IMG/VR virus record: IMGVR_UViG_3300028581_000018
Coordinates: 32,001-96,000 of that record
Length of the DNA: 64,000 nt
DNA from: a virus
Reading direction: 5' to 3' (one strand)
A program made the position numbers and the translations under genes. Positions 1 through 41,876 of this stretch are shown piece after piece. Every line of letters begins with the position of its first letter. The first letter of the stretch is position 1. The notes beneath the pieces are model-generated. The model saw only the letters and a list, made by a program, of their open reading frames with translations. It did not search any database and was not told where the DNA came from.

Positions 1-244
1 AGTTTATTACTACTTTATCTGGGGTTTCATTTACCGTGAACCAGTTGTTGGTAAAGGCCGCAGTTTTATAAGTATCTGTTGACCACTTTTCAACTATACT
101 AGTTAGTTCTTCTAAAGAAAAATCTTTAGTATCAATAGATAACGTTGTTCCTTCTGGTTTGTATTTACCCGCAGTTTTTACAACTACATTAGTAATGGCA
201 GATTGTACTGCACTATCTGTCAAGTTTCTAATTTTGCACGCCAT
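1..244 (-). CDS. N-terminal part of a further probable giant ejected/cargo protein (truncated by window edge)
   Basis: Not in the ORF track. ATG at 244-242, reading MACKIRNLTDSAVQSAITNVVVKTAGKY... open to base 1. Starts 19 nt after the vRNAP stop and is preceded by the TATATTA motif. Confidence 0.8.
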   Translation of the reverse strand, partial: MACKIRNLTDSAVQSAITNVVVKTAGKYKPEGTTLSIDTKDFSLEELTSIVEKWSTDTYKTAAFTNNWFTVNETPDKVVIN

Positions 245-249
245 GGTAC

Positions 250-260
250 TAATATACTAA
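250..260 (-). promoter_or_regulatory. Candidate phage late promoter motif (TTAGTATATTA)
   Basis: One of 8 TATATTA copies upstream of gene starts. Identical 11-mer at 38814-38824. Confidence 0.5.
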
Positions 261-263
261 ATA

Positions 264-3200
264 TTAAACTCTAAAACACGTCCCGTCTAGATCTAAACCT
301 ATTAGATCTTCGCTAACAAGAGTTTCACCAGCAATACCTTCTTGGTTTTCAATAATCAAATCCATTACTCCAAATTTACTTGACCCGGGCACCGGTAAGT
401 TAAATCTCTTATAAAGTTCACCATATAAGTACTCTGCAATAACTTTAGATCCCGCAATTTGTGGAGTGTTCTGTTTTAATATGTCATTTATCAAAAGAGA
501 CATATCCATTACAACAGCATTTCTAGGATTGCTCAAAATCTCTTCAATTTGAGATAACTGCTCATTTATACGTTTCTTAGCATCTTCAATGCTGGGAGTG
601 GTACCTTGAACTACAGGACTAGGTTGAGTAGTGCGTTGTTGAGAGGTTAATTTTGCAGGTGCCGTGGGCATACCTGGTGTTAGGTCTGCAGCTCTTCTGA
701 ATGTAAGAGTAATAGTATAATTTTCTATAACAGTACCATTAGGTAAAGTAATAGGTGGAAACTTCTGATCTCTTTTTACGCCTTTAGGTGTGTCATGAGC
801 TAGTTCAAATCTACCTTTACCATCCATACCAAAAGTATAAATAGTTCCATTTTGAGTAGGTATTTCTTTTCTAGAATCTGATCTAAAAGATGGTGAACCA
901 GGATTATTTTTATCCTCATAAATTCCAATTCCACTATTATTACCTATAGTATATACTACAACTGGATAATTTCTAGCACTCAAACTTTCTGTGGTATCTC
1001 TATGTGTTGCTATGTTCTGACCAGGTAAATAAATATTACCAATTACAGCATCATAGTTAGACATATCTATACCTAGAGTATTCTGAATCTCCTCAATAAT
1101 AGGTTGTAGATTAGATACAGGAGCTAGCGGATTACCATTTTGATCAACTGTATCATATACATAGTTATCTTTTGCCTTAGCATCTGTAGTAGCTAATCCA
1201 GCATTTGCATAGCTCTTATTATTAAGAGGTGCTTTAGCTGTACTTTTTCTAGTCCAACGTAGTCCATACATGAACATGTCATTAGCTGTACCAGAAGCAT
1301 TTTCTTTATAAGCTTGTGCTCTAATCTGTGGTTGGATAATATCTATAAAATCTTGAGTCTTATCAACAGATGGTTTAGTTTCTGCTACTACTACACCATA
1401 AGGTTCTGATACTACTTGCTGATTAGTACTTACAGGAGCTTGGGTGGGTTGAGTAGTAGTTCTTAATTGTTCAACTACTTCAGCTAATGCTGTAGGATGC
1501 ATACCTTGACCTCTAGCTGCAGACTTACCTGCATACAACAATGTAGCACCATCTAGTTTACCTTGATTAATTTGATTTAAAATCCATTCTCTTTGTTTTT
1601 CATTTACATCTTGAAGCAAAGTATCCCTTAATTCCATTTCCTTGCCTGTAGTAGCCACAGAATACTCCATATAATCACTTATAGGTTCATCAACTCCTAA
1701 TAACCAATCTTTATAAGCTCTTACTGCTTCACTAATACCGGCAACTTTTATAGTACCTCCATAACCAGCCTCACTAAAAGGATTACCAAAATGCTCATTA
1801 GGTTTAGCAGCTTCAGTGCGCATAGTATTAACCAACTTTGGATTATTTTTATCATAAACTTCCGCAGTTTTTAAATCACCTTTCCATTCTCTTGATGTAT
1901 CTATTGTAGGTTTAACACTAGTAGATGGTTGAGTAGTTTCTTTTACTTTAATTCTTGAAGTAGCACCTGTATGATAAACAGCAAACTTAGCACCTATTTC
2001 TTGCAAATAATCAATAAACTGAGAATCTACATTAGGCATGTCTCCTACTACAAACTCCATATTAAAATCATCATGATAAAACTTTATCATATCTTTAGTT
2101 TCTTGAAGTAAAGGTTTACCTTTTAAGGAACCATTTCTTGCAAGCATGACTGCTTTACCAGGGTCTGCCAGGTTTTTAGTACTTCTAGCAACTGTCTGTT
2201 CTTTTGTACCTTTTTGTTCTATTATACTTCCTGTTTTTAAAGAAGTTAAAGAAGAACTTGGATTAGTATTAGATACTTCAACAACAAAACTATCAGCAAC
2301 TGCTCTCATTGCTTTATCTTTACCATCACCTTCAGGAGTACCTTTACCAGTATTTTCAAAATCTCCTTTATATCCTTGGAATCCTCCAATACTAGTAGAT
2401 GGTTGAGTAGTGCGTTGTACACTAGAAATACCAGCATTAGCAAGCATCTCTTTAATCTTAGGTAAATTTTCTCTAGTATAATCTTTTCTTACTGTACCTT
2501 GTCTACCAAGATTTACATTTTCTGAAGGTATTACAAGTTTAATATTAGGACTAGCTTGTACTGTTTTAATAAGCAATGGTAAAATTTCTTCTATAGAACC
2601 TTCACCATGACCTAAACCCGCTAAAGGAAGTAAATAAGTTTTAGTTGGGTTTTCTTTAGAAACTTTAATCAAACTTCTTAAACTTTCTTTAAGTAACTCC
2701 ATGTTATTATTCATAGACATGTCATCACTCCATTTTTTCTTAACAGGTAACTGTACTACATCATCAGTAGCTTTAAAATTACCTTCACCTTGTTTAACCA
2801 AACCTTTAGCTTTAGCTGCTTGAGCAAGACCAGCACCATGTACACCACCTAAATTAGTAGTAATAACTGGGATACCAGGTAATGCAAAAATATCACCTTC
2901 TAATACTTTATCATTACTTACAGGAGCTTTGGTGGATTGAGTAGGTTGACCACCTTCTATAAAACCATCACCTACTTCTTTAAAACCAATACTAATTGGA
3001 AGATACTTGGCACGGGTAGTAGTATTTCTTAAATATGGAGACCTTGCTGCTTCAGTTTTATCTAGAGTGGTTGGATATACTACATATACCCCACCCGTTT
3101 GATCTTGCTTAATAACAAGGTCGTAGTAATCATATGGCTTAGAATAACCATATTGTTCGTTGGTAAAGAGCAGATTTCTAAAGTTTTTAGATGGTACATA

Positions 3201-6200
3201 ATTTGATCGTATTGTCTCCCCGCCAGGTAATCTATAACTAAATGCACCAGGAACAAGCTCGCTTCGGTCAATTTTTACAGGTGCCAAGCTGTATTGTCTA
3301 ACAGGAACTGTTGTTTTTCTAGTTTGACCAGAAATAAAACCTTCAGCAAAGTTCAATAATGATTGTTCTGAAAAATTAAAACCTGAAATAGCATCTTGAA
3401 TTGTAGCGTTTACTTCAGACAAATCAACTAGGTTTACTAAATTAGAAACATTTTTACTAAAACCATTTTGTAAAAATGCAATCTGGGGCAGCATAGTAAA
3501 TACATAGTTTATAAGCTTAATATTACTATCTGACAAGTTTGGCATTCTGTTTTTTACCGCCGTAAAATCTTTTAGTTGTTTTAACTGAGAATGGTATGAC
3601 GTTGCAGTAATCTCATCAATAGATTTTCCTATAAAGTCTAATATTACATATCCTGGATATTTTTTAGAATTAGTAAGAAAATAAGATAATACAGGAAACT
3701 GCTCTGTTAGTTCTTCTGAAAAATCTTTCTTTAAAATGTTTCTATAGAACACATTTGCAAATGATGATCCAGGATCTTGAAATAACTTATAGAGATTAAA
3801 GCTGTTAATATACGCCCTGTTTTCTTTTTGAACATCTGTACTATTTGGTTGAGTAAGTTCAACAATCGCGCGCTCTATCAAGAACCTAGTATACTCATGT
3901 ATTGTTGGGAACTCCTTGTTGCGAAAATCATTAGATAAGCTTTCATACTTTCTTTGTATCTCACTAGCACTTATATAGATTTTATCTTTAGTGAGGTAAA
4001 CACCTTTTTTTAAATAATCTACATACTGAACAGGTACTGTTTCTGATACACCAAATCCTTTGTAAGAATCAGATACACCAAGTCTAAAACCACGAACAGC
4101 ATTTTGGTATAATGCTAGAACAAGTTCATCTCTAAATGCAGCATCTAACAACTCCGTGCCGGTAGCTTTATTTGATGTTTGGCTATTTGATAATCTTCTA
4201 TAACCTTCTTGTAAAGAGTTAAACTCAGTGTTATCCGTTTCAATTTTACCACTAAGTTTATTTATAAAGTTATCAATGCGCGCATCAAACCTAAAAGGTA
4301 ATACTGATTTTGTTAAGGCTATAGAAAAGTCTCCAATAAAGAAGCTACCAATCATAGACTTTTCAGAGTTTTGAATAGCGTCAACTAAAGATCTATCAAT
4401 ACGACCATCGTAAAGCAGCTCATTTAATGATGCTTCACGTTCTCTGGTTGATAGATAAGAGTTTTCTCTTGTGGTGTCTACATTTGTTGCCCGGCTAAAC
4501 TTTGTAAATGCTTCAGATATATTTGATATCTCAATAAAATGTCTTAAAACTTTTTCTTGATACTCTTTATCTACTTTAGTAGGTATAAGTTGATCTTTAA
4601 GATCATTTAGTTGAAACTCTTCTTCATTATTTAATGAGTTTAATATGATTACATTCTTATTTTTATTGTTTAAAAGTATTTTATAAGCCTCACTTGCACC
4701 TCTTTCTTTCTTTAATGCTATGAACCTTCTAACAAGTGGTTGTGATACAAAGTAAACAGCATGTTCAACTGGTACTCCTGCCATTAACATATACATTAAT
4801 ACAGGAGTAATCTCTTTGTTACCTTGTATATAGAAGATCCATGGGTTTGCGCCAACGTCAACCCAACCATTAATCATCTGACTAAAAATATCAGATATTC
4901 TTACAAGCGGTGCTTTTTTATCTGTTCTATAACTATAAGTGTTATGTAAAGATATGTTACCCTCTTTTGTTACATTTTTTGGCAACAGCATCCTTATTGG
5001 TACAGTATAATCCTCCTTATTATTTCCACTACCTGTGGATATAACATATTCTTTTGGACTAACACCTTTCAAACTATTCAATAGAATATTATAGGTGGTC
5101 ATAATTGCACCAATACCTAAAGCATCCATGGCTGTCATGTATGCTTCATACTTAGACAAGTTGTAATCAGACTCAAATAATCTAGTAGGGCTTATTACAC
5201 CAGTAGATTCTCCAGAAAAATTTAATAATGGATCATAAGTCTGTGTGAGCCTTTTTAATTTATCAGCAAGATCATCAAAGATATCTGTGCTGTTAGGTGT
5301 TATTAATGACTCATAGTTTTGAGGACTTAATATAATTTCAAGAGATGTTTCTAGTAAATCTGTTTGTAGGGCGCCGACATAATTGTTCTCAACATCTAAT
5401 ACATAAATAATCTCTTTTAGATCTTCAATACTTTCTTCTATTTCTTTATTTAACTGATTTTTATCTTGAAAAGCATTTTTTAGTTCTTTATCTAAGTTAC
5501 CTGATTCATCTTTGAATCTATCAAATTCTTTTATTTGATCAAATAACCTTTTACTAAACTTTTCTAAGATACTCCTAGATGTGTCTTTAGTTAAAATCTT
5601 AGAGGATATGCGAAGAGCTTTAATTATATCCCCGTCAGTATAATCTGGTTTAGAAAGTACTTTTTGTAATGGACTTGGTAAAAATTGAAGCTGTCCGTTT
5701 TCACGATTATCATTAATTATTTTATTAATTTCTTCAATAATAAGCTTTCTACGAACTTTAGCATACTCGAGATTGCGTATGATATTAGAGATTGTCTCTT
5801 TGTTAACTTTCTTATCTGCTTTAAGATCTTTAATTAACATTTTAACTCTTTCTATAACATCTTTCTTATCAAGATTATTTTCTTTTTCAAGTCTTGATAG
5901 TTCATCTAAAAGATCTTGTCTTGTTTTATACTTCTTAGCAGATATTATCTTACCATTTTTATTTATTCTAGGAAATAGTGATGGTAGTTTATCAAAGTCA
6001 AAGTCACCACCAGATTTACCAACAATCTCTGAAGGCAACACAATAATGTTACCCGTGCCAATTGGCAAAAACTCATATACTTCTAATGCATCAATTGAAC
6101 CTTGACCCTGCACAGGTATCCTTACACCAAGAATACTAATTGCCTGGCGGTTGTCATCTTGATGTAACCATTTATCATTTTTGATTAACTGGTTTAGCTT

Positions 6201-9200
6201 AACCCGGCTAGCCTCAATATCAAGTACTCTCTTTTTTGTACCATCTTCTTCTTCAACGATATCATATACAGCAATTATATTACCATTAAGATCTTTACGC
6301 TGAAAAAGATTTATGAAGTCTCCATGTAAGGTAATAGCTACTTTAGCAGCTTGAATCTTTTTAGGATTGTATTTATAAAAGGGTAAAAACTCATTAGTAC
6401 CTAACCATTTCTTTCTTTCACTCTCATTAGCTTTTCTCCAAAATGATCCAGGTACTTGTACCAGTCCTTCACCATATGACTTTTGCTTTATAAGGCGCCG
6501 GCTGATTGTAGAAAACATGATTGCTTCTATAGTCTGGGCATTAGGTAAAGCTGATAAATCATTAGTTAGATTACCATTAGCATCTACAGAAATCTGTTTT
6601 ACTATATGCTCTGGTAAATTTTTCTTTCTCAGTTGAGTTTGTAAAAAAGCAGCAAGTCTTTCTACTGGGCCAGAGTATGTATTACCTTCTTTTACCCAAC
6701 CTATTTCATCTAAGAAATCTTTTTCAAGATTTTTAGTAACCTCATCTACAAGTCTTAAATAGTCTTTTTCAAGTTCTTTTTTGTCCTCTATAATTATACC
6801 ATTTAAGTACAAGTTCTCAACGATAAGCTTCCTCATCTGCGTAGCAAATGTTTGACCCGCTTTCCAAACATTAGTATTGCTGGTAACCTCTTTTAAGTAC
6901 GCTAAGTTTACAGGGTTAACGGTAAACTCTGTAGACATATTTATCTTATTACGATCACCATTCTCGTAAAGATCAGTAGGATTACCAAGATTAGAAATCT
7001 TTGAACCACTAGGATAAGTAATATAATCTATATTATTGATAATCATAAGATTATGAATATCATTTAATAAAGAATCTTCATGTACATTTGGTAGTAATGG
7101 TGATATACTAAACTTGTGTAATGCAGTAATAGGGGCATCTGTCTGAAGATTACCGTACATTTGTAACTTGTAAGTTGGAAAAAATACTTTAGCGTCATTA
7201 GCATCAAGCTTTTCACCATTTACAATCTTTTGGTATAGTGCTTCTTGTTCTGGTAACCAGTTGTTTTGTGCAATTTTAAGGTGTCGGTATGTATCAATAG
7301 TCATATAAGCATGACCATCACCAATTTTCATTTCTTTACCATAAGCTTTCTCAAGAGATTCAACAACTTCTTGTCTAACAGCTTTTTGACTTCTCTTTTC
7401 TCTCGCGGCTTTAAGTTTAACAACAGCTTCAATCATTTCATTAAGACTAACAGATCTTAAGCCTGTATCTTCCTGAATAATTGCTGTATTTAAAATACTA
7501 GTTGTCTCTTTTACAACCCCATCTGGTCTAAGTTCAGACATTACCTTTTCACTGTAAACTTTGGGGTATGCTTTATTAATAGCTTGTAGTACCCATTCAT
7601 CAGAAATAAAACCTGGGCCACCAGAACCAGCACCAGCATTATACTTTGTACCAGCTTCTTTTTTGTGATTGTATTGAGCCATATCACCATAAAAGAAATT
7701 GTTCATTTCAAAACGGTGAATAAAGTAGTTTACTGTATATGCTCTAACTAACGTTTTGTTTAACTCAGCATCCTTTACATTTAAATTAAACTTTCTTAGT
7801 TCTGTTTCATCTACAGGAACAAGTGGAGCTGATTGATCGTATCTATTCTGATTTTGCTTATTAACTTCTGTAAAGTAATATTTTAGATCTTCTTTAATAG
7901 CATCAATGTTTTTCCTTACAGATTCATCAGATGTTAAACCCTTCTCAATGTCTGCGTATAGAGCACCTTTTGTCTTAGGACTTAATATATCATCAAATGC
8001 TGTAAACTTTTCACCGGCGCCATCTTTATTCAACGCTTGGTTTTGTTTGTATGTCTCATTTGTCTTAAACAAAACAATTCTTTCATACTCCGCTTTGATA
8101 TATCTTTGAAGTAATCTAAGAGCATCATCTGGTAAAAGAGTATTCTCAAATAGTTTAGGTTGTAAGTATAATTCAGCAGAACCATTTTTATCTGTTATCA
8201 TAGGAACATAAACACTAGATTTACTTTCGTGAACTAGTGTTGGCATATATCCGTGTAGGATAAAAGAATAAAAGTCAGTTATGAACTTTTGATTTATTGT
8301 TAAATCTGTAGCTGAACTAGCATTTTCTATGTTATCATATTCATCAAGCTGTTGATAACCAACATGAAACATTAACTCTAACTTATTAAGATTGTTTCTG
8401 GATTCATCTTCGTAAAAAAGTTTTTCTCGTATGATACTGTACTTGAAAAATGGATTTAGTTCTTCAGAAAACTCTACGTTAAAGCCAGATGCATCTAATA
8501 AGTTAATGCTCTCATTTAGATACATGATCTTTCGAGTCATTGAGTTATGCAGAGAAATACTACTTACCAGATCACCATTAGCATTTAGAATAATGCTATC
8601 GTTAAAAAGAGGATTATACTTAATCTCTATCTGGGCAATTTTTCTAAGAATAGTTCTTTGATTACTTATTTTAGAATCAGTACTTCTCTCAATAAATGCT
8701 TGTAGAGGATTACTTTTTAGTTTTTTGTTATTAGGATTAATGCGAATATCATCGAGCATTTTATTAGCAGCAGATAATAACTCATTAAGAGTAATTCCAC
8801 TTTTTTGTGCTTGAATTACTTCTTTAGTAGTTTTTGTAAGCTGTACACCGAGCCTTTCAAAAAACTCAAAAGCTTCCTCAAAAGTGTTTACTCTGTTTGG
8901 TAAGTTGTTTGTGTTTAATACTGCTTCGTTATTAACGCGGGGTGCCACGTTAACAAAAATATTCTGCCATCTTCTATAAACATTTCCTACACTATTAGTA
9001 GCTTTACCAGAAGTGAAAGTTTGTTTAGTATCTGTTGTATTTTCATCAACCAGAACGTTACTTTTTGTATTAATTAATGCTTCTACTGATGCTTTATCAA
9101 AGGCTGAATGAAAATTTAATAGCACCTCTAACAAAATCCTTACTCTATTTCCTGTAATATCTTGAGCTAAAGCTCTATTGGTTGTATGCTCTTTAGGTAA

Positions 9201-12200: not shown

Positions 12201-12413
12201 AAAATATGATAAACCTGATATTAACTCAGGTACCATCATGGCATATGCTAATGCTGTATTCTCATCATTATTTTTACGAACTAATGAATATATTTTTTGA
12301 GCAAACGGTACCACAGAAAAATTTTTCTGATCTGCAGTAATCATTTTCTGAATGTCTTTTAATAGAAGAGCACTTACTCGTTGTATTTGCTCTTTTGGTA
12401 TAGCACAGTTCAT
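264..12413 (-). CDS. Virion RNA polymerase polyprotein (crAss-type double-psi beta-barrel RNAP) with N-proximal zincin domain and C-terminal Macro, SLOG, DUF4326-like and AlkB-like domains
   Basis: 4049 aa. RIPVQG...SGGDFDFDK catalytic signature (DFDFD at 5991-6005) as in phi14:2 gp66-type RNAPs. HEAWH...EEYLAE zincin motif (10374-10388). Accessory domains at about 690-2915. Confidence 0.92.
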   Translation of the reverse strand: MNCAIPKEQIQRVSALLLKDIQKMITADQKNFSVVPFAQKIYSLVRKNNDENTALAYAMMVPELISGLSYFVPEVKRYLARINYSDKLSISIETFKDIEEVKKLITTITGSLQTILEIIDSQRIVLGQYEATEDNKRKIELNTSEPVFTYSSSPNTDTREQAFQIEQEKVTVPIQTLRDEEDPVKNRIYKFKEKVSKQQKNNEETVPGQPLMYNGKPLYYTMMAHQNLDIELDKEYLGSGDFASMNRFQRSNLYNRRENLTILIVTDAKGVPYLFDNEGNITEDGTGGVIYNFTRNKDKIATLKSREAIAAQLELIKRLEETKKYVTENNTQVTMPITSIGSSNYDNTPGLLRDIRIDASDEQIDSEDWIRRKGIFDKFLKITNLVRNLSDEHVEAVKPYFKDVPGLTEAIIMLLSEQNILVDNINISSDTRYKYLETFFVKIGNNLLTTVKATDRPQVIYNKSAETVTIKDADGKETQYKIGDENLKSALEEVFKQNILVNINLTNFTNGIYTNIKVENGELKVKDNSNYYSWLYNNIKVRASKPNAEGQIVALNPLFRYTLPDLDTLQKTPEVEQETSPAEEKTVEEQDNENLNPGNPDLFNLSFDDLFRATNLENAVTEEQIRDAEKWWANSPLSKVIPLNRLLSIVNSNAWATFSRSGITLYKGSSSVDIYHEAWHGFTQLYLTTEEKVKLYKEVRKKPGVFTTVNGEVVSFSDASFFQIEEYLAEQFRDYARFQNPEKGSPAKNTIFRKIWNLLKALFGGTNRNAVYVDAMSVPAVAEAFEKLYFGKLLNLQPNINNSMFDVLNRAKSVKDDKTPLNIEDEEFDLIRQSIDGLVAKALINTELDGTRSNNLAFLYSSKGRTTIFEGILNTFKNKLADINEELDSLEEKPNNLLDQKRLLEIVIENFGDIESFANNKKTNGILAAYAQTSSAAITNLVVAEEDIDIDVDADTSNNSELLQQGGDKRANSRPMKDYLPKELTTILRIIPSFKKATQKEINSKSYDFSIGEEKFVYIKNKLGFPINQEFGPTLNALQKTVVGVKTYTEMLDAIKKSSDAFPVLKVIYELLPKEHTTNRALAQDITGNRVRILLEVLLNFHSAFDKASVEALINTKSNVLVDENTTDTKQTFTSGKATNSVGNVYRRWQNIFVNVAPRVNNEAVLNTNNLPNRVNTFEEAFEFFERLGVQLTKTTKEVIQAQKSGITLNELLSAANKMLDDIRINPNNKKLKSNPLQAFIERSTDSKISNQRTILRKIAQIEIKYNPLFNDSIILNANGDLVSSISLHNSMTRKIMYLNESINLLDASGFNVEFSEELNPFFKYSIIREKLFYEDESRNNLNKLELMFHVGYQQLDEYDNIENASSATDLTINQKFITDFYSFILHGYMPTLVHESKSSVYVPMITDKNGSAELYLQPKLFENTLLPDDALRLLQRYIKAEYERIVLFKTNETYKQNQALNKDGAGEKFTAFDDILSPKTKGALYADIEKGLTSDESVRKNIDAIKEDLKYYFTEVNKQNQNRYDQSAPLVPVDETELRKFNLNVKDAELNKTLVRAYTVNYFIHRFEMNNFFYGDMAQYNHKKEAGTKYNAGAGSGGPGFISDEWVLQAINKAYPKVYSEKVMSELRPDGVVKETTSILNTAIIQEDTGLRSVSLNEMIEAVVKLKAAREKRSQKAVRQEVVESLEKAYGKEMKIGDGHAYMTIDTYRHLKIAQNNWLPEQEALYQKIVNGEKLDANDAKVFFPTYKLQMYGNLQTDAPITALHKFSISPLLPNVHEDSLLNDIHNLMIINNIDYITYPSGSKISNLGNPTDLYENGDRNKINMSTEFTVNPVNLAYLKEVTSNTNVWKAGQTFATQMRKLIVENLYLNGIIIEDKKELEKDYLRLVDEVTKNLEKDFLDEIGWVKEGNTYSGPVERLAAFLQTQLRKKNLPEHIVKQISVDANGNLTNDLSALPNAQTIEAIMFSTISRRLIKQKSYGEGLVQVPGSFWRKANESERKKWLGTNEFLPFYKYNPKKIQAAKVAITLHGDFINLFQRKDLNGNIIAVYDIVEEEDGTKKRVLDIEASRVKLNQLIKNDKWLHQDDNRQAISILGVRIPVQGQGSIDALEVYEFLPIGTGNIIVLPSEIVGKSGGDFDFDKLPSLFPRINKNGKIISAKKYKTRQDLLDELSRLEKENNLDKKDVIERVKMLIKDLKADKKVNKETISNIIRNLEYAKVRRKLIIEEINKIINDNRENGQLQFLPSPLQKVLSKPDYTDGDIIKALRISSKILTKDTSRSILEKFSKRLFDQIKEFDRFKDESGNLDKELKNAFQDKNQLNKEIEESIEDLKEIIYVLDVENNYVGALQTDLLETSLEIILSPQNYESLITPNSTDIFDDLADKLKRLTQTYDPLLNFSGESTGVISPTRLFESDYNLSKYEAYMTAMDALGIGAIMTTYNILLNSLKGVSPKEYVISTGSGNNKEDYTVPIRMLLPKNVTKEGNISLHNTYSYRTDKKAPLVRISDIFSQMINGWVDVGANPWIFYIQGNKEITPVLMYMLMAGVPVEHAVYFVSQPLVRRFIALKKERGASEAYKILLNNKNKNVIILNSLNNEEEFQLNDLKDQLIPTKVDKEYQEKVLRHFIEISNISEAFTKFSRATNVDTTRENSYLSTREREASLNELLYDGRIDRSLVDAIQNSEKSMIGSFFIGDFSIALTKSVLPFRFDARIDNFINKLSGKIETDNTEFNSLQEGYRRLSNSQTSNKATGTELLDAAFRDELVLALYQNAVRGFRLGVSDSYKGFGVSETVPVQYVDYLKKGVYLTKDKIYISASEIQRKYESLSNDFRNKEFPTIHEYTRFLIERAIVELTQPNSTDVQKENRAYINSFNLYKLFQDPGSSFANVFYRNILKKDFSEELTEQFPVLSYFLTNSKKYPGYVILDFIGKSIDEITATSYHSQLKQLKDFTAVKNRMPNLSDSNIKLINYVFTMLPQIAFLQNGFSKNVSNLVNLVDLSEVNATIQDAISGFNFSEQSLLNFAEGFISGQTRKTTVPVRQYSLAPVKIDRSELVPGAFSYRLPGGETIRSNYVPSKNFRNLLFTNEQYGYSKPYDYYDLVIKQDQTGGVYVVYPTTLDKTEAARSPYLRNTTTRAKYLPISIGFKEVGDGFIEGGQPTQSTKAPVSNDKVLEGDIFALPGIPVITTNLGGVHGAGLAQAAKAKGLVKQGEGNFKATDDVVQLPVKKKWSDDMSMNNNMELLKESLRSLIKVSKENPTKTYLLPLAGLGHGEGSIEEILPLLIKTVQASPNIKLVIPSENVNLGRQGTVRKDYTRENLPKIKEMLANAGISSVQRTTQPSTSIGGFQGYKGDFENTGKGTPEGDGKDKAMRAVADSFVVEVSNTNPSSSLTSLKTGSIIEQKGTKEQTVARSTKNLADPGKAVMLARNGSLKGKPLLQETKDMIKFYHDDFNMEFVVGDMPNVDSQFIDYLQEIGAKFAVYHTGATSRIKVKETTQPSTSVKPTIDTSREWKGDLKTAEVYDKNNPKLVNTMRTEAAKPNEHFGNPFSEAGYGGTIKVAGISEAVRAYKDWLLGVDEPISDYMEYSVATTGKEMELRDTLLQDVNEKQREWILNQINQGKLDGATLLYAGKSAARGQGMHPTALAEVVEQLRTTTQPTQAPVSTNQQVVSEPYGVVVAETKPSVDKTQDFIDIIQPQIRAQAYKENASGTANDMFMYGLRWTRKSTAKAPLNNKSYANAGLATTDAKAKDNYVYDTVDQNGNPLAPVSNLQPIIEEIQNTLGIDMSNYDAVIGNIYLPGQNIATHRDTTESLSARNYPVVVYTIGNNSGIGIYEDKNNPGSPSFRSDSRKEIPTQNGTIYTFGMDGKGRFELAHDTPKGVKRDQKFPPITLPNGTVIENYTITLTFRRAADLTPGMPTAPAKLTSQQRTTQPSPVVQGTTPSIEDAKKRINEQLSQIEEILSNPRNAVVMDMSLLINDILKQNTPQIAGSKVIAEYLYGELYKRFNLPVPGSSKFGVMDLIIENQEGIAGETLVSEDLIGLDLDGTCFRV
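611..2944. repeat. Five dispersed linker repeats (core TTGAGTAG, encoding T/P-T-Q-P/S linkers) separating the vRNAP C-terminal domains
   Basis: 1917-1937 = 2391-2411 (21/21). 622-639 = 2401-2418 (18/18). 1428-1456 vs 2916-2944 (27/29). Confidence 0.85.
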
Positions 12414-12417
12414 ATGT

Positions 12418-15400
12418 TTAACACTTTGAATTATTACCTATATCGTCTTCTAGACTAGAATCATCTTGATCTAAAAAGGGATTTTCTTCACCAAATGTAG
12501 TTCTAGGTTCACTTTTAATAGCATCTAAGTTTTCATTGGTTAATTCCAGGTTTATCCGTTCTTCTTGAGATAGTACAACAGGTTCATCCTCAACACTTAA
12601 AAGTAGGTCAAATGAATTTTGAAAATCTTTCACACTCATTTTTTCTTTTACTGAAGGATTATTTACCAAAGATATCACTATTTCTCCTCTTGCCTCATTA
12701 TAAGATACAACTTTATAAGCAGTATCTACACTTTGCACATCACTTTTCCTAAAGAAATATGTGTTTTTTGATATGCTTTCTAGATCTGGTAGTAGGGCGA
12801 GCTCCGCGCGCTTTGCTTCAATAGCATCACTGAGCTCTTGATTAAGTGTAGAAGTAGGAAACTGGAATCTGAAATTAAAAGCTTCTTTTACAACACCTGA
12901 AAGCTGGCTTAAATTTGTAACAGCACCAAGCATTCCTAGTATGTTTTGACGTTGTTCTGATGCTCGATTAAAGATTGTAGCATCTGACACGCGCATCCTA
13001 CCAACAACACCATTAGTTTCTGCGTCAACTAGATTAACTACATCTTCATATATTACATCAAAAGCTTCACCCGGTACAACAGATTCTTTTTGAAGACTTA
13101 GCTTTATGATGTCTCCCTGGTTTAAAAGAATGTTTGCGTCTAAGAATACCCCAACCCGTAACGTTTTACCATTTACTTTTAGAATTAAACTTCTAGAACT
13201 TCCATATTCAAAGTATTCGCCGTAGAGTTCTTGTCCAGAATTTAAAAGCTCTCTTACAAGTTTTGCTTTAGCGTCAACACGGTCACTAGGTCTTGAGTTA
13301 TCAATCTTAGTTAGTACAGCTTCTTGTTCTGCTGTAAGACTAACTGTGTTCTCATTAGTAAATGTTGTAGTTTCTCCACCGGTATCTTCACTTTCTAAAA
13401 CAGCTATTTCTTCATCAAATTTCTTTTTTAACTCATTTAATATATCTACTCTTCCTTGATCTTTAGCTGTTTGCATTGCTTTGAAAAATGCTTCTGCTAC
13501 AATTTGACGATCCTCAGATTGTGTATTTTTATCTGGATGTACGAGTTTAGCATATTCTTTAAACAATCGTGCAGCTTCTGCTTTATTTGTTTTTACTACC
13601 TCACCCTTAAGAGTTTTATTGATAGCATCAAACATTTGAGATCCTAAGTTATCAGGTATAAACTCACCTCTAACAACTTTACCTGGTTGATTTTCACTAA
13701 AATCAAATAATGATTCGGATCCAAATACTTTTGATATAGTATCATTAATTCTCTTTATTATATCCCCTTTATCAGAAACAGTAGTACCTTCTAAAGCAGC
13801 TAGTTCTGCATCATATTTAGCATTGATTTCTTTATTTCTTTTTTGAACTTCTGGCATCCATACATTGTCAGGTAAAGAAGCTCTATTATTTTTAGCATAT
13901 TCAGCGACCTGTTCTCTTTCTTCTTGTCTTCTTCTTTCTATAGCAGTAACCTCCTTAAACAATGCTGGATATCTAGTAACTACACTTCCTGCTACTACAG
14001 GCTCTTTAGGATTCTCTAACAAGAATTTTGCAAGTCTTGTTAGCTCTTTAAATTCAGCAGGAGTTATCTTTTGTTTTTCATCTTCTAACGCATCTGCTCC
14101 TTCACCCTCTCCAGTTTCTTCTCCTGATGGCTCTTCTTCTTCTGCTCCTGTTTCTTCTTCTGTTACCTCTTTTAGTCTATTACCTAGTGCTTCATCTACA
14201 ATCTCTTCTAATGTCATTTCTTTCTTGGTTGTATCACTAGGAACATCGCTTGTGAATACTACATGTTTTTCATTGACGTTGATGGTTATAAAGGGCGCAT
14301 CCGCTGTGAGCTTTTGAGTACCTACTTTTGCTGGAGTTTTAATAGACGATATTTTTGCGTCGCCATCATACTCTACCTCAAGAGGTAATATCCCCAGGTT
14401 TATTTTGTCAAGACCAGTAATTTCCTGTAAGATCTTTTTGTAAATAATCTGTTGTAGAGCATTTTTTATATATGTTCTATATGCATCCGCTCCTGTAGAA
14501 TATTTTGACCATTTAGATTTCTTACCGGTTTTTACATCTACAATCCACCACTCTGAGTTTTCGTCAATGAATAGTAAATCCATTTGCCCAGCAACCTTTG
14601 TATTATCAGAATAGATTACATCTGTATTAGAGGCTATTTCTCCAACCGTTTGTTTAAAAGGCTCTAGTATCTTTTGTAGTTGTTTAGCCGCAGCTTCTGA
14701 TAATAAAGACGTTTCTGGAATACTTGTAGCACCAATATCTGCTACAAAATCTCTTACCGCCTCATCAACCTCGTTACCAACATCTCTTGATGCATCATAT
14801 AAACTATTCATTATCTCTTCAGATAATGTATCTAAATAGTTAGTTTGTACCTTAGCCGTTATTGTACTTGATGCTAATACCCCAAGAAAATCAGGCAATC
14901 TTTGAATTGTACGATCTAGTATTTTACCAGCTTTTTCAGAACTAACTTTACCACCAGTTATACTAACAAGCTCTCTTTGCATATGCGCGCGCACATCTGT
15001 AGCACGATCACCTTTTAACGCATTAGCTAATTGTGTAAGGTATAGTGTTACCTCAGCATTTGGCGCTAAACCAAAAGGCTCTTGTCTAAAATACTTTTCT
15101 AGTATTTTTTCAACTATTAAACTCACCCTAGCATACTCTTCTTCTTTAATGATATATGCTTCAGATGATTTTACTGGAGTACCATCAGGATTTTTCTCTA
15201 CACTAGCCATTCTTTGTCTAATAGAATCTAGAACTTTTTCAATTTCTTGTTCTATTAAAAAGATGTCTTTGTTTGTATAGAGAGCATACTGTTTTATAAA
15301 AGCATCCAGCGCGTTTATATCATTTGCTAAAGCTGTGTATTCACGAGTTCTAGTTGTAAGTGTAGCTAGTTTAGATTTTAAAGATTTTAGCAAACTCCTC

Positions 15401-16155
15401 AAATACAATAAAGACATATCTGTAGATATCTCTTCGCCTGTTGTACCAAGTTTTATATTTGCTGGTTTTGTTTTAGCAGGGGTTCCTGTAGATGGCACCG
15501 TGGCAAGTGCTGTGTTGTATTGGCTTATAATACTTACCGCTGTGCTTGTAGATAAAAACTTACTTATATCAGTGTATAACGTTGGATTAGCTCTTTGAGC
15601 ATTTGCAAATGCTGTATCTAATTTAGTTTTTAATTCTCTTAGTGCTTGATAAGTAGCATCAGTATCAGGTAATAACTCAAAATCTTCATAAGTAATATCA
15701 CCAATTGATATTTCTTCATTAGGCACCAGCTTAGTTGTCTTTTCTTCTTCCTCTTCTTCTTCCGCTGGAGTAGGGGTAATAGGTGTTGCACTTGTAGATG
15801 TAGTGCTTAATGTAGTACCTGGTATTTTAAATCCAATATACAAGAACACTTTTTCTAATCCTTCTACAGGACTAGTAAACTTATTGATCATATCTACTAA
15901 CGCCGTTTCACGTATTGGCGTAGCATCAAGCACTGACTTAAATACAGGTATACTTCTACCTTTACCAATAATAGCAAATGCTGTTTGTACAAATAATGCT
16001 GCCCTACTAACACTCCCCGTGCTAGTAGCAACAAGATTGAACAGATCATTCATGTAAACGTCTATGTCAAACGTAGCAGGATCCGCATTAATATGCGCAT
16101 ATACATCATTTGCTAAATCAGAAATCTGCTCTTTAGTTAATGCACAAGTTATCAT
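12418..16155 (-). CDS. Giant ejected/cargo protein with PD-(D/E)XK nuclease and J-domain
   Basis: 1245 aa. VAGQMDLLFID...VDVKTG...LQQIIY nuclease motifs. KEYAKLVHPDKN J-domain (HPD at 13531-13539). ATGA overlap with the upstream gene. Confidence 0.8.
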   Translation of the reverse strand: MITCALTKEQISDLANDVYAHINADPATFDIDVYMNDLFNLVATSTGSVSRAALFVQTAFAIIGKGRSIPVFKSVLDATPIRETALVDMINKFTSPVEGLEKVFLYIGFKIPGTTLSTTSTSATPITPTPAEEEEEEEKTTKLVPNEEISIGDITYEDFELLPDTDATYQALRELKTKLDTAFANAQRANPTLYTDISKFLSTSTAVSIISQYNTALATVPSTGTPAKTKPANIKLGTTGEEISTDMSLLYLRSLLKSLKSKLATLTTRTREYTALANDINALDAFIKQYALYTNKDIFLIEQEIEKVLDSIRQRMASVEKNPDGTPVKSSEAYIIKEEEYARVSLIVEKILEKYFRQEPFGLAPNAEVTLYLTQLANALKGDRATDVRAHMQRELVSITGGKVSSEKAGKILDRTIQRLPDFLGVLASSTITAKVQTNYLDTLSEEIMNSLYDASRDVGNEVDEAVRDFVADIGATSIPETSLLSEAAAKQLQKILEPFKQTVGEIASNTDVIYSDNTKVAGQMDLLFIDENSEWWIVDVKTGKKSKWSKYSTGADAYRTYIKNALQQIIYKKILQEITGLDKINLGILPLEVEYDGDAKISSIKTPAKVGTQKLTADAPFITINVNEKHVVFTSDVPSDTTKKEMTLEEIVDEALGNRLKEVTEEETGAEEEEPSGEETGEGEGADALEDEKQKITPAEFKELTRLAKFLLENPKEPVVAGSVVTRYPALFKEVTAIERRRQEEREQVAEYAKNNRASLPDNVWMPEVQKRNKEINAKYDAELAALEGTTVSDKGDIIKRINDTISKVFGSESLFDFSENQPGKVVRGEFIPDNLGSQMFDAINKTLKGEVVKTNKAEAARLFKEYAKLVHPDKNTQSEDRQIVAEAFFKAMQTAKDQGRVDILNELKKKFDEEIAVLESEDTGGETTTFTNENTVSLTAEQEAVLTKIDNSRPSDRVDAKAKLVRELLNSGQELYGEYFEYGSSRSLILKVNGKTLRVGVFLDANILLNQGDIIKLSLQKESVVPGEAFDVIYEDVVNLVDAETNGVVGRMRVSDATIFNRASEQRQNILGMLGAVTNLSQLSGVVKEAFNFRFQFPTSTLNQELSDAIEAKRAELALLPDLESISKNTYFFRKSDVQSVDTAYKVVSYNEARGEIVISLVNNPSVKEKMSVKDFQNSFDLLLSVEDEPVVLSQEERINLELTNENLDAIKSEPRTTFGEENPFLDQDDSSLEDDIGNNSKC

Positions 16156-19100
16156 TTACAATTAAGATTATTAGATAATTTTTCTCTAGCTGTAAGAACA
16201 TCTGGGCTAAATGTAAAAGTACTATCTACTACACTAGAAACATCACTTACTGTATTATTAGCAAAAGCTCTTTCTTCATCTGTAATATCAGGTGTTTCAC
16301 CACGCTCTTCTGCAGGCACAGCCTCAGAGTTATTTAACTCCCTCGCAATGTTTAAAACTTCAATGTAATTTTCATACTCTAAAGAATCTTCTGTTACTTG
16401 AACACCGCGGCGCACATCAATAAATTCAATAGGTACGTTTTTACCGGGAGGAGAGTTTACATAATTTGTAAACTGTTCCGCGTCAACATATATTTGAAAC
16501 TTATCAGCAAGATAATTCAGAGTAGCATTCTTCTCATGCGCCTTTAAAAAGTTATTTACAATAGTATCAGCATAGGTCTTCTTGTTGTTATAAAGATCCT
16601 GCATAATTAAAAAGTTGCGAGAGTATTGTTCCTCTAATGATGCTGGATCAAACATCGCATCAATATAAGGCTGCATAAATTTTTCATTAGAACTTATTGT
16701 ATGATAATCTAACAACTTATCAATAAACGCCATTGCTTTTTGATCATCTATTTTTGTACCAGATTGTTTAGATAATTTACCTAGTAATTCTTTTGTTTTA
16801 GCATGCACTCTACCTCTTAATGATTGTTGTTCTGCATCAATTTTTGCTTCTTCCTTACGTGTTAAATTTCTTTTTACAGCAGCTGTAGCATTTTTATATG
16901 GAGAAGAAGCTTTTAACAACTGAAGTTTAAGTTGACTATACTTATCAAAACTATTAAGTGTAGTTAACATTTGGATAAGAGAACCTTCTGTGGGTATACC
17001 AAAAATACCAGAGTCAAAAACAGTACCGGTTAATGTTTTTAAAAGATCTTCCTTTTCACTTAAGATTTTTTTATCAGATTCTTTTGTAGATTTTTTTAGA
17101 ATATCAATCTCTTGTTGCAACAGTGAAACCTCATTCTCAGAGTTTTGAGGGTTAAACAACATTGTAAACAAACTATTGGCGCCCCCACCAATTGGTGAGT
17201 CAACAGCCATAGCTTCTGCATAAAGTTTTTCTTTTCTTTCTAGTTGCGCGTCAAAGATAGAACCATTAAATATAGCGTTGGTGATTGTGTGACGATAAGC
17301 ATTCTCTTTTAGTTTAGCTTTTATATACTCTGGTGAGTCTTTAATCATACCTTCTGTTGATGCCTCTGCAGGTAGCTCAAAGTTTTCAGTCATATATTTA
17401 TGACGTTCTCGTATAGCAGCAACTTTTTTCTTGAACTCAGGGACTTCTTGTTTCATCCTCTGAGCTTTTTCTAGAGTTACATTATAAGCATCTGCTACAT
17501 CTTGAGCTTCTTGTTCTTCAATTGTTTCAAGGTTCTCTAGATAGTAATCTAATGTTCCTGTATTGATTGCTGTTAAGATACCGAGAGCTCGCGCGCCATC
17601 TCTCTCATTTTTCTGTTTCCACTCATCATTTCTTAGTTGCGCATCATCCATACCGCGAGCAAACTCATCTTGGGCAGCAACATTAAAAAACCTACTATCA
17701 AACATGACGTCAACATCTTGCATCATCTCAGTAAGAGTCTTAGCTAGTTTTGGCCCGTATTCTTCTTTAGCTTTTAAATAGTTTCCGTATTCAGTTTTAT
17801 CAAAGAAGTAGTTATATGCAATTGGTGCCTTAGCAATAGCCGTATTAATAGGCTTCATGTGAGCACCAATTAAAAACCCTGATAAAAATGTTTCTAACCC
17901 CTGACCACTAAGTTGCTCCTTAGCACCATGAATATATGCAGCTTTGTGAGCAAGAAAGTTTGCAGCAACAGGATTGTTAAAAGCATTGATATAATGTTCT
18001 TTTGCTCCTATAGCAACAGCTTCCTGGAATACTTCCTGGAAACCTTCCATGAAATTTGCAGAGGTATATTTAAGACCTGATAATAATGTCTTGCGCCCTT
18101 CTTTTAAAGATATTTTAGGCAAGAAAGAATCTTTTACCCATTCAACTTTTGGTGCTTTCCCTTTACCACGAATAACATTAAGATAACCACCTTTTCTTTT
18201 TACAACATCTTCTGTAAGTTCACGAATTGGCCTAAACCCTCTAAAGGCATTACCAATAGTAATCCGGTTACTTAAATAGATAATAGGCCAGTTTAATAAA
18301 CCAGCTTCATTACCTGCAGCGCTTGCTTGTTGGTATATCTGTTTTACTTTACCTTCTGAGAGTGGTTGATTATTATTTTTTTCAAGTTCAGTTGCATATA
18401 AGCTTTTGTACACTTCATTATTTACAAAGCCGCCTTCTAAGTTTGATTCTGATAATGCTACAGATACTTCTTTAACATCTCTATAAAAAGCACCACCCGT
18501 TTTAGCAACTTTAGCAAGAGATGTAAGATTCTTTGACTTTCTTAGATCTAAGAACGCCTCTGTAGTTTGACGTAAAGGATTAGCAAAATTTACAAAATCA
18601 TTGCCTGCAGCTTTCCAAAATGTTTTTGCTCGTAATGGGTTTTTAGAAAGAGCTTGTAGAGCTTTTCTGGTTTTATTTATTGCCCCATAAATATCACCAA
18701 CACTACTCACAATTTTACTACCAGATCTAATTGCTGCAGGTACAGCGCCCAATCCTTGTGTAGCAGCGGTAATTAAAGATGCCTCAGCAACAGACTCTGC
18801 AGCAATACCCACAGTATAAGCAAAAGACATCTGGATATTAGATAAACTTGAAAGCATTCCTCCCCTAGATGAGTAACCCATTTCTGTAGCTTTCTCATAT
18901 GCGTCTGCTTGATCTATATTACCGAGAGGTTTATTAGATGAACTTAGCAAATCTGGGATAGACATAAAAGCATCTATGGCTCCTCGAGTTGCAAGAGGCA
19001 TAAAACTCTTAGTCATCATTCTTTTCCAATCATCAAACACAGATGTATTTGCGTTGTATACAGATTCGTTATCGCGAAATGGATTAAAACCTAGTTTGTT

Positions 19101-19433
19101 TTTTACATCACCCAGCGCATAATATCTTTCAAAAGATTGACCACTTAAATCTTTACCACCATATTGAAATAGAGATGCTAGCTTGGGAGAACGTGATGCA
19201 TTGATTGAAGCAACATCCATTTTTTGTTGGAGTTGGTTATTAAACAATTTACCAGGATCTCCTGATGTAGATGTTATTCCTGTTGCTAAAGGATCTGACT
19301 GTGTAGCATATGGATTAGGGCGCCCAACAGCATTTTTATAACCACTATTTAATACAGGATCTTTTAGATTAATGTTTTTTTGAATACCTGCTAGTGGATC
19401 AAAATTATTATTAGGTACTTGTAATTCTTCCAT
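16152..19433 (-). CDS. Giant ejected/cargo protein, probable inner-membrane-spanning ejection protein
   Basis: 1093 aa. Ala/Gly-rich hydrophobic/amphipathic segments in the N-terminal half (AYTVGIAAESVAEASLITAATQGLGAVPAAI; FLSGFLIGA) and a helical C-terminal half. Position in the cargo block. Confidence 0.65.
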   Translation of the reverse strand: MEELQVPNNNFDPLAGIQKNINLKDPVLNSGYKNAVGRPNPYATQSDPLATGITSTSGDPGKLFNNQLQQKMDVASINASRSPKLASLFQYGGKDLSGQSFERYYALGDVKNKLGFNPFRDNESVYNANTSVFDDWKRMMTKSFMPLATRGAIDAFMSIPDLLSSSNKPLGNIDQADAYEKATEMGYSSRGGMLSSLSNIQMSFAYTVGIAAESVAEASLITAATQGLGAVPAAIRSGSKIVSSVGDIYGAINKTRKALQALSKNPLRAKTFWKAAGNDFVNFANPLRQTTEAFLDLRKSKNLTSLAKVAKTGGAFYRDVKEVSVALSESNLEGGFVNNEVYKSLYATELEKNNNQPLSEGKVKQIYQQASAAGNEAGLLNWPIIYLSNRITIGNAFRGFRPIRELTEDVVKRKGGYLNVIRGKGKAPKVEWVKDSFLPKISLKEGRKTLLSGLKYTSANFMEGFQEVFQEAVAIGAKEHYINAFNNPVAANFLAHKAAYIHGAKEQLSGQGLETFLSGFLIGAHMKPINTAIAKAPIAYNYFFDKTEYGNYLKAKEEYGPKLAKTLTEMMQDVDVMFDSRFFNVAAQDEFARGMDDAQLRNDEWKQKNERDGARALGILTAINTGTLDYYLENLETIEEQEAQDVADAYNVTLEKAQRMKQEVPEFKKKVAAIRERHKYMTENFELPAEASTEGMIKDSPEYIKAKLKENAYRHTITNAIFNGSIFDAQLERKEKLYAEAMAVDSPIGGGANSLFTMLFNPQNSENEVSLLQQEIDILKKSTKESDKKILSEKEDLLKTLTGTVFDSGIFGIPTEGSLIQMLTTLNSFDKYSQLKLQLLKASSPYKNATAAVKRNLTRKEEAKIDAEQQSLRGRVHAKTKELLGKLSKQSGTKIDDQKAMAFIDKLLDYHTISSNEKFMQPYIDAMFDPASLEEQYSRNFLIMQDLYNNKKTYADTIVNNFLKAHEKNATLNYLADKFQIYVDAEQFTNYVNSPPGKNVPIEFIDVRRGVQVTEDSLEYENYIEVLNIARELNNSEAVPAEERGETPDITDEERAFANNTVSDVSSVVDSTFTFSPDVLTAREKLSNNLNCK

Positions 19434-22543: not shown

Positions 22544-22545
22544 AT

Positions 22546-23181
22546 TTAGATATATTTAAATGTTGTTTTATTTATTCTTTTTCCTAATAGGATTCTTGAA
22601 AGAGAACCTTTGGTCATTCCAATTAACTCACAAACTTCAGCTAATGAGCTATATATAACGCCTGTTGTAATATCTATAATTTTTTTTCCTCTTTTTTCCC
22701 TATGTAGCTTTGTATAGTTTATACCTTCTCTTGATCTTTTTAAAAGTTCTTTATGTTGACAAGAAAGTGTCCTTTGTTTTAAAGCTTCAATACAGGCTTG
22801 AGATGGTTTTTTGCCTTTATTTGCTTGTCTTAATTTTTCTATTGTTGCTTCTGAATGTATAGAGCAACCATTTGGATTTGTAGGTTTTATATTATAACCA
22901 GTTGATCTGTCCAAACAATTTAATTCATTAACCCAATAGTGTTCTCTAGCATGTAAATTACTGATGTCACATTTTTCAATCATCTCGAAAATAAAATTTT
23001 CTTCACCGTACTTAGTCCATGCTCTTTGCAAATAACTATTATTATGTTTGTCTTTTCTTAAATCATAGAGATGTCCATTTATTCTAGTTCTTACATTGGA
23101 AGCACAACCAATATATATTTTACCGTTAGTTATACTAGTAATTTTATATATTCCAGGAGTTGATTGTATATAAGTAGCCAT
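22546..23181 (-). CDS. Free-standing GIY-YIG homing endonuclease with NUMOD3/NUMOD1-like DNA-binding modules
   Basis: GIYKIT...KIYIG...R...LQRAWTKYGEENF...E...GYN catalytic domain. HSEATIEKLRQANKG (NUMOD3-like). C-terminal IYSSLAEVCELIG HTH. Confidence 0.92.
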   Translation of the reverse strand: MATYIQSTPGIYKITSITNGKIYIGCASNVRTRINGHLYDLRKDKHNNSYLQRAWTKYGEENFIFEMIEKCDISNLHAREHYWVNELNCLDRSTGYNIKPTNPNGCSIHSEATIEKLRQANKGKKPSQACIEALKQRTLSCQHKELLKRSREGINYTKLHREKRGKKIIDITTGVIYSSLAEVCELIGMTKGSLSRILLGKRINKTTFKYI

Positions 23182-23186
23182 ATCTT

Positions 23187-26657: not shown

Positions 26658-26659
26658 AA

Positions 26660-29971: not shown

Positions 29972-29998
29972 AGTATCTGTATTAAGGTTAAAATACGA

Positions 29999-39826: not shown

Positions 39827-39829
39827 GAA

Positions 39830-40372: not shown

Positions 40373-40373
40373 C

Positions 40374-41870: not shown

Positions 41871-41876
41871 CTTATT

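Follow-up and report, generated by a model that had tools for sequence, protein, structure and literature searches.

The Cargo Genes at the End of the Virion Operon

The DNA analyzed here is a stretch of 64,000 nucleotides (the window) covering positions 32,001 to 96,000 of the IMG/VR virus record IMGVR_UViG_3300028581_000018. The full record, of 109,449 bases, is referred to as G000, so that the window corresponds to G000:32001-96000. Our subject is a run of four consecutive genes for very large proteins of 1093, 1245, 4049, and 2465 amino acids (aa), whose few cysteine (Cys) residues all lie at protein termini (Table 1). In the block 264-31468 every large gene is on the minus strand, and the portal, large terminase and major capsid protein of the virus match crAss-type families. 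Judged by the portal, the closest cultured relative is the Leptolyngbya phage Lbo-JY46 (32.5% identity), followed by the portals of Crassvirales (≈22%). By sequence comparison, the four last genes of the virion operon form a cargo module of the crAss type, with the RNA polymerase among its proteins.

The 1093-aa protein is a homolog of the N-terminal ≈1000 aa of proteins of the crAss001 gp47 type, and most members of its family are 1,900–2,600 aa long. The 1245-aa protein contains a PD-(D/E)XK nuclease domain (residues 454–579), matches residues 1713–1871 of crAss001 gp47 (BLAST E value 8e-6) and is the counterpart of the C-terminal half of those gp47-type proteins that are not split. The family of the 1093-aa protein, here called family 1, has 716 matches among 1.84 billion representatives, and all counts for it were taken on the best 150 members, which are representatives each less than 50% identical to the others. 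In 72 of these 150 the 1245-like part follows the 1093-like part within a single chain, which means that the gp47 homolog of the window is split in two (1093 + 1245 aa).

The 4049-aa protein is a virion RNA polymerase (vRNAP), homologous to gp50 of crAss001 (BLAST E value 8e-9) and to gp66 of phi14:2 (E value 4e-12), and possesses the catalytic DFDFD motif of these enzymes as well as an HExxH motif at residue 676. The 2465-aa protein matches the 2748-aa protein of Lbo-JY46 (E value 2e-8) and, weakly, gp49 of crAss001 (E value 0.002), and is of the same type as gp49 and phi14:2 gp65. Neither the family-1 profile nor the 4049- and 2465-aa proteins found a match by sequence in the PDB. The INPHARED collection gave zero matches when queried with the window DNA, the 1093-aa protein and P0019.

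A preliminary description of the window, made from the letters of the sequence, had labeled the first three proteins as membrane channel, nuclease/J protein and vRNAP. The polymerase is borne out by the DFDFD motif and by the homology to gp50 and gp66, and the nuclease by the PD-(D/E)XK domain, but a J protein is not supported, as the DnaJ match has an E value of 0.32. A hydropathy scan of the 1093-aa protein found no hydrophobic or transmembrane-like segment, so the membrane channel is not supported. The same description had seen a loss of internal Cys residues in a Macro motif (PxIGCG changed to PLAGLG) and in the CxC...CH motif of DUF4326. PLAGLG is present at residue 3263 of the 4049-aa protein, but neither the four proteins nor residues 3100–3550 of the 4049-aa protein have a Pfam match to Macro or DUF4326 at an E value of 5 or below.

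Some features of the two longest proteins can be noted in passing. The AlkB-like domain near the C-terminus of the 4049-aa protein (Table 1) recurs at different positions in otherwise distant giant homologs with 70–89% identity and looks mobile. Residues 147–660 of the 2465-aa protein (positions 5565-7106 of locus L083, minus strand) form a module of ≈500 aa that is 40–50% identical across many giant proteins sharing ≈27% identity elsewhere. Its position varies among these giants, no Pfam family covers it, and its only matches in the protein atlas are unnamed viral clusters (0.85). Residues 2301–2323 of the same protein are the sole strongly hydrophobic, transmembrane-like segment in eight large proteins of the cargo block.

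Distribution of Cys Residues in the Four Proteins

The 1093-, 1245-, and 4049-aa proteins contain five Cys in 6387 residues, each no more than four residues from a terminus, which is exactly the count given in the preliminary description. The gene that follows is cut by the edge of the window and was described as starting with MAC. It does, and the Cys in this start (C3) is the only one of the full 2465-aa protein, which has no C-terminal Cys. All four proteins taken together have 6 Cys in 8852 residues and none of them internal, compared with an expectation of ≈155 Cys for the four (the remainder of the genome has 1.75% Cys). The chance that six out of six Cys should sit within five residues of a terminus is P ~1e-14.

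The order along the chain is C -> N,C -> N,C -> N, where the letters denote the termini that bear a Cys. The first member has a C-terminal Cys only and each C-terminal Cys faces an N-terminal Cys of the next protein, as first described, giving three junctions with facing Cys residues. The facing codons are 14–40 bases apart across very short intergenic gaps; TGT is the codon used in five of the six cases.

Conservation of the Terminal Cys Residues

The terminal Cys residues are conserved in all four protein families, across hundreds of homologs, which is what a tabulation across homologs, proposed earlier as a check, was to establish. Full-length homologs of the 1245-aa protein, at identities as low as 43%, all have two Cys and no more, one at position 4 and one as the last residue. 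The N-terminal motif MITCALT[KR]EQ is kept in 15 homologs, and C1245 is an invariant column of the alignment. In the family of the 4049-aa protein, where identity goes down to 23%, a Cys is found within the final 7 residues in 45 of 45 sequences and at position 3–8 in about two thirds.

Within family 1 a Cys lies in the last ten residues in 137 of the 150 representatives, nearly always as the sole Cys in 1,000–5,700 aa. N-terminal Cys residues are absent from all 150, which together contain 143 Cys over 311,958 residues. C1092 is invariant in an alignment of 38 sequences with a mean column identity of 22%. The family of the 2465-aa protein shows the opposite end of the pattern, with an N-terminal Cys only in 111 of 120 members. 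When the N-termini of 58 proteins encoded downstream of a family-1 gene were aligned, the Cys (Cys3 in the 4049-aa protein) was the only invariant column. Finally, in five genomes that are 97–100% complete all virion operons end in C -> N,C -> N.

Pairing of Cys Residues at Gene Junctions

Scanning IMG/VR with an alignment as query yielded 80 loci, of which 56 non-redundant ones were used for scoring junctions; a scan of IMG/VR with the lone 1245-aa protein as query found zero relatives. We scored every neighboring gene pair in the 56 loci for a C-terminal Cys in the first gene and an N-terminal Cys in the second. Both were present at 50 junctions, the C-terminal Cys alone at one, the N-terminal Cys alone at none, and neither at 168 (Fisher P 6e-49). 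The lone unpaired junction is a miscalled start codon, since the next in-frame Met gives an N-terminus of MKVTCALS, and with this correction 51 of 51 are paired. The C-terminal Cys is found anywhere from -1 to -10 counted from the end of the protein, and the ATG always precedes the N-terminal Cys by 2–5 codons. The motif types on the two sides of a junction co-vary by clade, but as this may be due to shared descent it was not counted as co-evolution.

Gene order was compared using the IMG/VR loci and five whole records. The preliminary description had asked whether terminal Cys residues come and go with gene fission and fusion, and they do: the pair is gained at splits and absent in fusions. 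The 72 family-1 proteins that contain both the 1093-like and the 1245-like part have no Cys at the internal joint, and nearly all have a single C-terminal Cys. Four fusions of gp47 and RNA polymerase, 4,520–5,722 aa in length, have one Cys each, at position -2 or -3, and the loci L080 and L081 have open frames of more than 4,328 aa with zero Cys. The breakpoints slide along a colinear order, as the HExxH segment that ends crAss001 gp47 is found within the N-terminal part of the 4049-aa protein in the window. In all cases examined each gene break comes with one Cys pair, and the additional link of the window is located at the split of its gp47 homolog.

Cargo Proteins of Cultured Phages

The same arrangement can be read from cultured phages. 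In crAss001, gp47 has a single Cys at -3, gp50 has Cys residues at positions 5 and -9 and one internal, and gp49 has a single Cys at position 5. In phi14:2 the single Cys of gp67 is the last residue, gp66 has Cys residues at positions 3 and -2, and gp65 has one at position 3. In DAC15, gene 61 has a Cys only at -3, gene 63 has one at position 5, three internal and one at -1, and gene 62 has one at position 4 and one internal. Lbo-JY46 has a two-member chain, in which the 1552-aa protein ends with a Cys and the 2748-aa protein has a Cys at position 4. The gp47-type gene is opposite in strand to the gp50- and gp49-type genes in crAss001, DAC15, and IAS virus.

The module of the window resembles that of crAss001 and phi14:2 in its homologous proteins (BLAST), the DFDxD motif of the polymerase, the order of the proteins and the pattern of terminal Cys residues. 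It differs in that the gp47 homolog is split and has an extra Cys pair, and in the far larger polymerase protein (4049 aa). Packing of the proteins in virions is known only for crAss001 and phi14:2, and in some phages the module is fused as one polyprotein. In crAss001, gp47, gp49, and gp50 (262.5, 154.5, and 276.9 kDa, ≈694 kDa together) are virion proteins by mass spectrometry and were placed in a cargo zone of the capsid without resolved density (PMC10172136). Inter-subunit disulfides are present in the tail and the portal vertex of the same phage (PMC10172136). The gp66 protein of phi14:2 is annotated as a virion protein (NC_021806), and its structure as a virion RNA polymerase has been solved (PDB 6VR4; 10.1101/2020.03.07.982082). 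Neither the crAss001 structure paper (PMC10172136) nor the phi14:2 preprint (10.1101/2020.03.07.982082) mentions cysteines or a link between these proteins.

Two observations fall outside this pattern. IAS virus (L113 31077-40059, minus strand) has a 2159-aa polymerase without an N-terminal Cys, and internal Cys residues are more frequent in it (10 in 2159 aa). This polymerase, whose translation contains an X, overlaps by 11 bases an upstream open reading frame (ORF) of 837 aa that has Cys residues at positions 5 and -4, and the two may be one gp50-type gene split by a frameshift or a sequencing error. Lbo-JY46 (L002 34333-36357, minus strand) has a 674-aa protein with a lone Cys at position 5 (MKKKCSKK); the preceding gene is Cys-free, so this Cys has no facing partner.

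Predicted Structure of One Junction

The N-terminal domain of the 4049-aa protein is predicted to be all-helical, and Cys3 is placed on a short tail before helix 1. The N-terminus of the 1245-aa protein resembles this domain weakly (Table 1). We modeled residues 1–420 of the 4049-aa protein together with residues 1046–1245 of the 1245-aa protein. The complex obtained a score of 0.64 (runs 0.64, 0.40, 0.65), while the highest of three controls scored 0.00. Of 80 solved complexes 58 reach the mark that this complex passes, as do 2 of 110 mismatched pairs, rates that are only rough here as our own alignments were used. The runs share at least 36% of contacts, the partner has a predicted local distance difference test (pLDDT) value of at least 58, and there are 111–113 confident contacts. 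On the 4049-aa side the modeled interface consists of residues 1–16, 41–72, and 98–102, while the 1245-aa side includes residues 1238–1245. Modeling of neighboring termini had been put forward in the preliminary description, and for this one junction both extreme termini fall in the predicted interface. The model supports docking of the C-terminus of the 1245-aa protein on the N-terminus of the 4049-aa protein, without showing a bond.

Table 1. Cargo genes, terminal Cys codons and predicted domains. Positions are those of the window unless marked G000.
Feature	Position	Strand	Details
Chain member 1, 1093 aa	16152-19433	-	Sole Cys C1092 (...NNLNCK), from translation
Chain member 2, 1245 aa	12418-16155	-	Cys only C4 and C1245 (final residue; ...NNSKC), from translation
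Chain member 3, 4049 aa	264-12413	-	Cys only C3 and C4046 (...DGTCFRV), from translation
Chain member 4, first 81 codons in the window	1-244	-	Starts MAC at 244; sole Cys C3
Chain member 4, complete, 2465 aa	G000 24847-32244	-	One Cys (C3); ends ...QESVEARK; final gene of the operon
Cys1092 codon of the 1093-aa protein	16158-16160	-	C-terminal donor of junction 1
Cys4 codon of the 1245-aa protein	16144-16146	-	N-terminal acceptor of junction 1
Cys1245 codon of the 1245-aa protein	12421-12423	-	
Cys3 codon of the 4049-aa protein	12405-12407	-	
Cys4046 codon of the 4049-aa protein	276-278	-	C-terminal donor of junction 3
Cys3 codon of the 2465-aa protein	236-238	-	
DFDFD catalytic motif of RNA polymerase, residues 2137-2141 of the 4049-aa protein	5991-6005	-	D2137, F2138, D2139, and D2141 invariant in alignment
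AlkB-like 2OG-Fe(II) oxygenase domain, residues 3736-3867 of the 4049-aa protein	813-1208	-	Pfam E value 9e-7 on a fragment, slightly below the curated cut-off
N-terminal domain, predicted all-helical, residues 1-110 of the 4049-aa protein	12084-12413	-	pLDDT 94-98 for residues 11-100
N-terminal 76 residues of the 1245-aa protein	15928-16155	-	Weak similarity to the 4049-aa N-terminal domain: 25% identity over 79 aa, E value 6e-5 (single comparison)
C-terminal segment, residues 1190-1245 of the 1245-aa protein	12421-12588	-	Modeled against the 4049-aa N-terminal domain

Comparison With Other Systems

A disulfide of the kind that facing termini would form is known from the cyanopodophage A4 (Anabaena phage A-4L), for which CRISPR editing has been described as well (PMC12002296). 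In the cryo-electron microscopy structure of its virion (PNAS 2025), the C-terminal helix of gp27 occupies a gp26 cleft, where a disulfide between Cys1715 and Cys5 holds it in place (PMC12002296; PDB 9k3a, 9k2v). The bond is located in the five-fold ring of the pre-ejectosome, where gp27 and gp26 alternate about the portal axis (PMC12002296). In the A-4L genome (KF356198) gp27 is 1717 aa with one Cys, at -3, and gp26 is 1114 aa with one Cys, at position 5. Both systems have giant proteins that are adjacent in the virion operon, with a single C-terminal Cys facing the single N-terminal Cys of the next protein. Unlike the window, A4 has one link instead of three and no RNA polymerase in the pair, and the bond was presented as a local stabilizing one and not as a conserved rule. 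The preliminary description knew of no such linkage. We likewise found none described for crAss-like phages, within an incomplete coverage of the literature, but the related disulfide in A4 has been published (PMC12002296).

The N4-like phages (Schitoviridae; N4 gp50, DEV gp71–73) also have giant ejected proteins, including a virion RNA polymerase, that are almost free of Cys, with 0.00075% Cys in ejection proteins versus 0.865% in the proteomes (PMC11445570). This suppression was tied, through an earlier suggestion cited in the same paper, to passage through the periplasm (PMC11445570). It is complete in those phages, whereas the chain of the window keeps six conserved terminal Cys residues and has no internal ones.

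In two-chain bacterial toxins a single disulfide tethers the translocated cargo chain to its partner, and reduction in the cytosol frees the cargo. Such toxins, for example the clostridial neurotoxins (PMC6899712), are unrelated proteins with another route of translocation, and the likeness is an analogy of principle only.

A Possible Head-to-Tail Disulfide Chain

Taking the sequences, the complex model and the A4 analogy together, we consider it probable that the facing terminal Cys residues join consecutive cargo proteins head to tail by disulfides into a chain equivalent to a polyprotein. This linkage was first proposed in the preliminary description, and comparison gives it strong support through the conservation of the Cys residues, their pairing at junctions and their behavior in gene fission and fusion. 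The contact between termini in the model and the disulfide of A4 agree with it.

The mechanism could be as follows. Each protein would dock by its extreme C-terminus to the small helical domain with which the next one begins, and the single Cys on each side would form an inter-protein disulfide once the particle meets an oxidizing setting. The product would be one ordered chain of 8,852 residues, behaving like the single polyprotein of some relatives. With internal Cys residues purged there would be no wrong cross-links, and the chain could thread the tail partly unfolded. After entry, reduction in the host cytoplasm would break the links, releasing the nuclease, the polymerase and the protease-like parts. 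Formation of the disulfides in this phage, the time at which they are made and broken, and a part in ordering ejection are all inferred, the timing and the role in ordered ejection less confidently than the link itself. Ejection in an unfolded state had been called established for crAss-like cargo; partial unfolding is a proposed model (PMC10172136). The order of ejection in crAss001 was attributed, with the word “probably,” to packing and mutual interactions (PMC10172136).

Several points weigh against such a chain. A disulfide has been observed in no crAss-like protein of this kind, and the support for it is wholly comparative or predicted. Assembly occurs in a reducing cytoplasm, no thiol oxidase was found (no search was aimed at one), and the gut crassviruses inhabit anoxic habitats. 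Some internal Cys residues are tolerated in gut members, e.g., IAS virus and crAss001 gp50. In the complex model the pair Cys3–Cys1245 is absent from the lowest-error pairs, and the output holds no sulfur-to-sulfur distance. The N-terminal motifs of the 1245- and 4049-aa proteins are alike, which leaves the specificity of the order unexplained. Moreover, A4 gp27 and gp26 have BLAST E values above 0.1 against the chain proteins, hhalign against gp27 gave a probability of 0.2%, and Foldseek found no match. VIA-align of the modeled N-terminal domain of the 4049-aa protein against 9k2v_E gave a Z of 5.1, which is inside the noise of helical bundles. As homology is not detectable by these comparisons, the A4 precedent is an analogy.

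The same C-to-N links might instead lock a static core in the capsid, like the pre-ejectosome of A4, and fix equal copy numbers of the proteins, with no thread that orders ejection. The place of the A4 disulfide, within the gp27/gp26 ring at the portal axis (PMC12002296), fits such a core, as does the location of crAss001 gp47, gp49, and gp50 in the cargo zone lacking resolved density (PMC10172136). We regard this as unlikely. The interchange with true polyproteins fits one linear unit, and the complete purge of internal Cys residues fits passage through tail and periplasm, as argued for the N4-like phages (PMC11445570). A core is at the same time compatible with the purpose of a thread, and the two are not mutually exclusive.

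Docking could also be non-covalent, with the two Cys residues bridging a metal ion or sensing redox state without forming a disulfide. The modeled interface is sizeable, given its number of confident contacts, and assembly in a reducing cytoplasm would suit it. A usual metal site would need more than a single Cys from each side, however, and there is no conserved His or second Cys near the termini, Cys3 being the sole invariant column among the 58 N-termini. In the one structure solved with this signature the two Cys form a disulfide (PMC12002296), and we judge this explanation improbable.

Sequence alone is silent on which Cys partners which, and in principle like could pair with like (C–C or N–N dimers), or the middle proteins could close into rings. 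Against such pairings, no new C-terminal Cys is seen unless the following gene has a new N-terminal one (50 to 0), N-terminal Cys residues are absent from first members and C-terminal ones nearly absent from last members, and both the model and the A4 structure have a C-terminus contacting the next N-terminus, so we give them very little credence. The remaining idea, an origin at the nucleotide or translation level such as a ribosome that hops between the Cys codons on either side of the stop and the next start and so makes one polypeptide, might seem suggested by the closely spaced, mostly TGT codons of the window, but it was rejected as extremely improbable because the pattern holds with the gp47-type gene on the opposite strand in crAss001, DAC15, and IAS virus, so that a translational explanation cannot be general, because the position of the C-terminal Cys is variable, because the ATG stays 2–5 codons before the N-terminal one, and because A4 gp27 and gp26 are separate chains (PMC12002296), with proteomics of crAss001 likewise reporting separate proteins that have their own N-termini.

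Returning to the disulfide-linked chain, it might be extended to Crassvirales and their relatives in general, which we put forward tentatively and with more doubt than confidence. The terminal Cys pair would then be a redox-cleavable substitute for a peptide bond, and the cargo module a single super-protein with freely moving breakpoints, every break being repaired by a disulfide in the particle. The order of entry would be fixed, and reduction in the cytoplasm would be the signal to release and activate the vRNAP and its companion enzymes.

Among the viruses of the human gut, crAss-like phages rank first in abundance, and the Cys rule bears on how they deliver ≈1 megadalton of protein, part of which is the polymerase needed to start infection. 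If true, it would explain why relatives have either one polyprotein or three or four genes, why internal Cys residues are purged, and how the reducing cytoplasm could trigger early transcription. The rule is also a simple mark for annotating ejected cargo chains in metagenomic phages and offers a concrete and cheap test in the already cultured phi14:2, crAss001, DAC15, and Lbo-JY46. The window contributes a chain of four members, produced by the splitting of a gene, and one junction whose model passes.

Neighboring Genes

Four large genes lie upstream of the chain at 19436-31468 on the minus strand, encoding proteins of 1035, 1156, 1103, and 489 aa. They too are Cys-poor (4 Cys in 3783 aa, none of them terminal), and an HExxH motif is present at residue 156 of the shortest, the 489-aa protein. 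A GIY-YIG/NUMOD3 homing endonuclease of 211 aa with 7 Cys (22546-23181, minus strand) is flanked by two Cys-poor cargo-like genes. ORFs of 211–214 aa with 5–6 Cys are found in the equivalent position in several related IMG/VR loci, e.g., L009, L024, L033, L041, L049, and L070. Further along, a run of ORFs at 38936-44371 (minus strand) has 4.6–8.3% Cys, and two of them terminate in Cys clusters (...SSCSGC and ...INCVNC). These ORFs are at the opposite extreme from the cargo genes and probably encode external parts of the tail or fibers.

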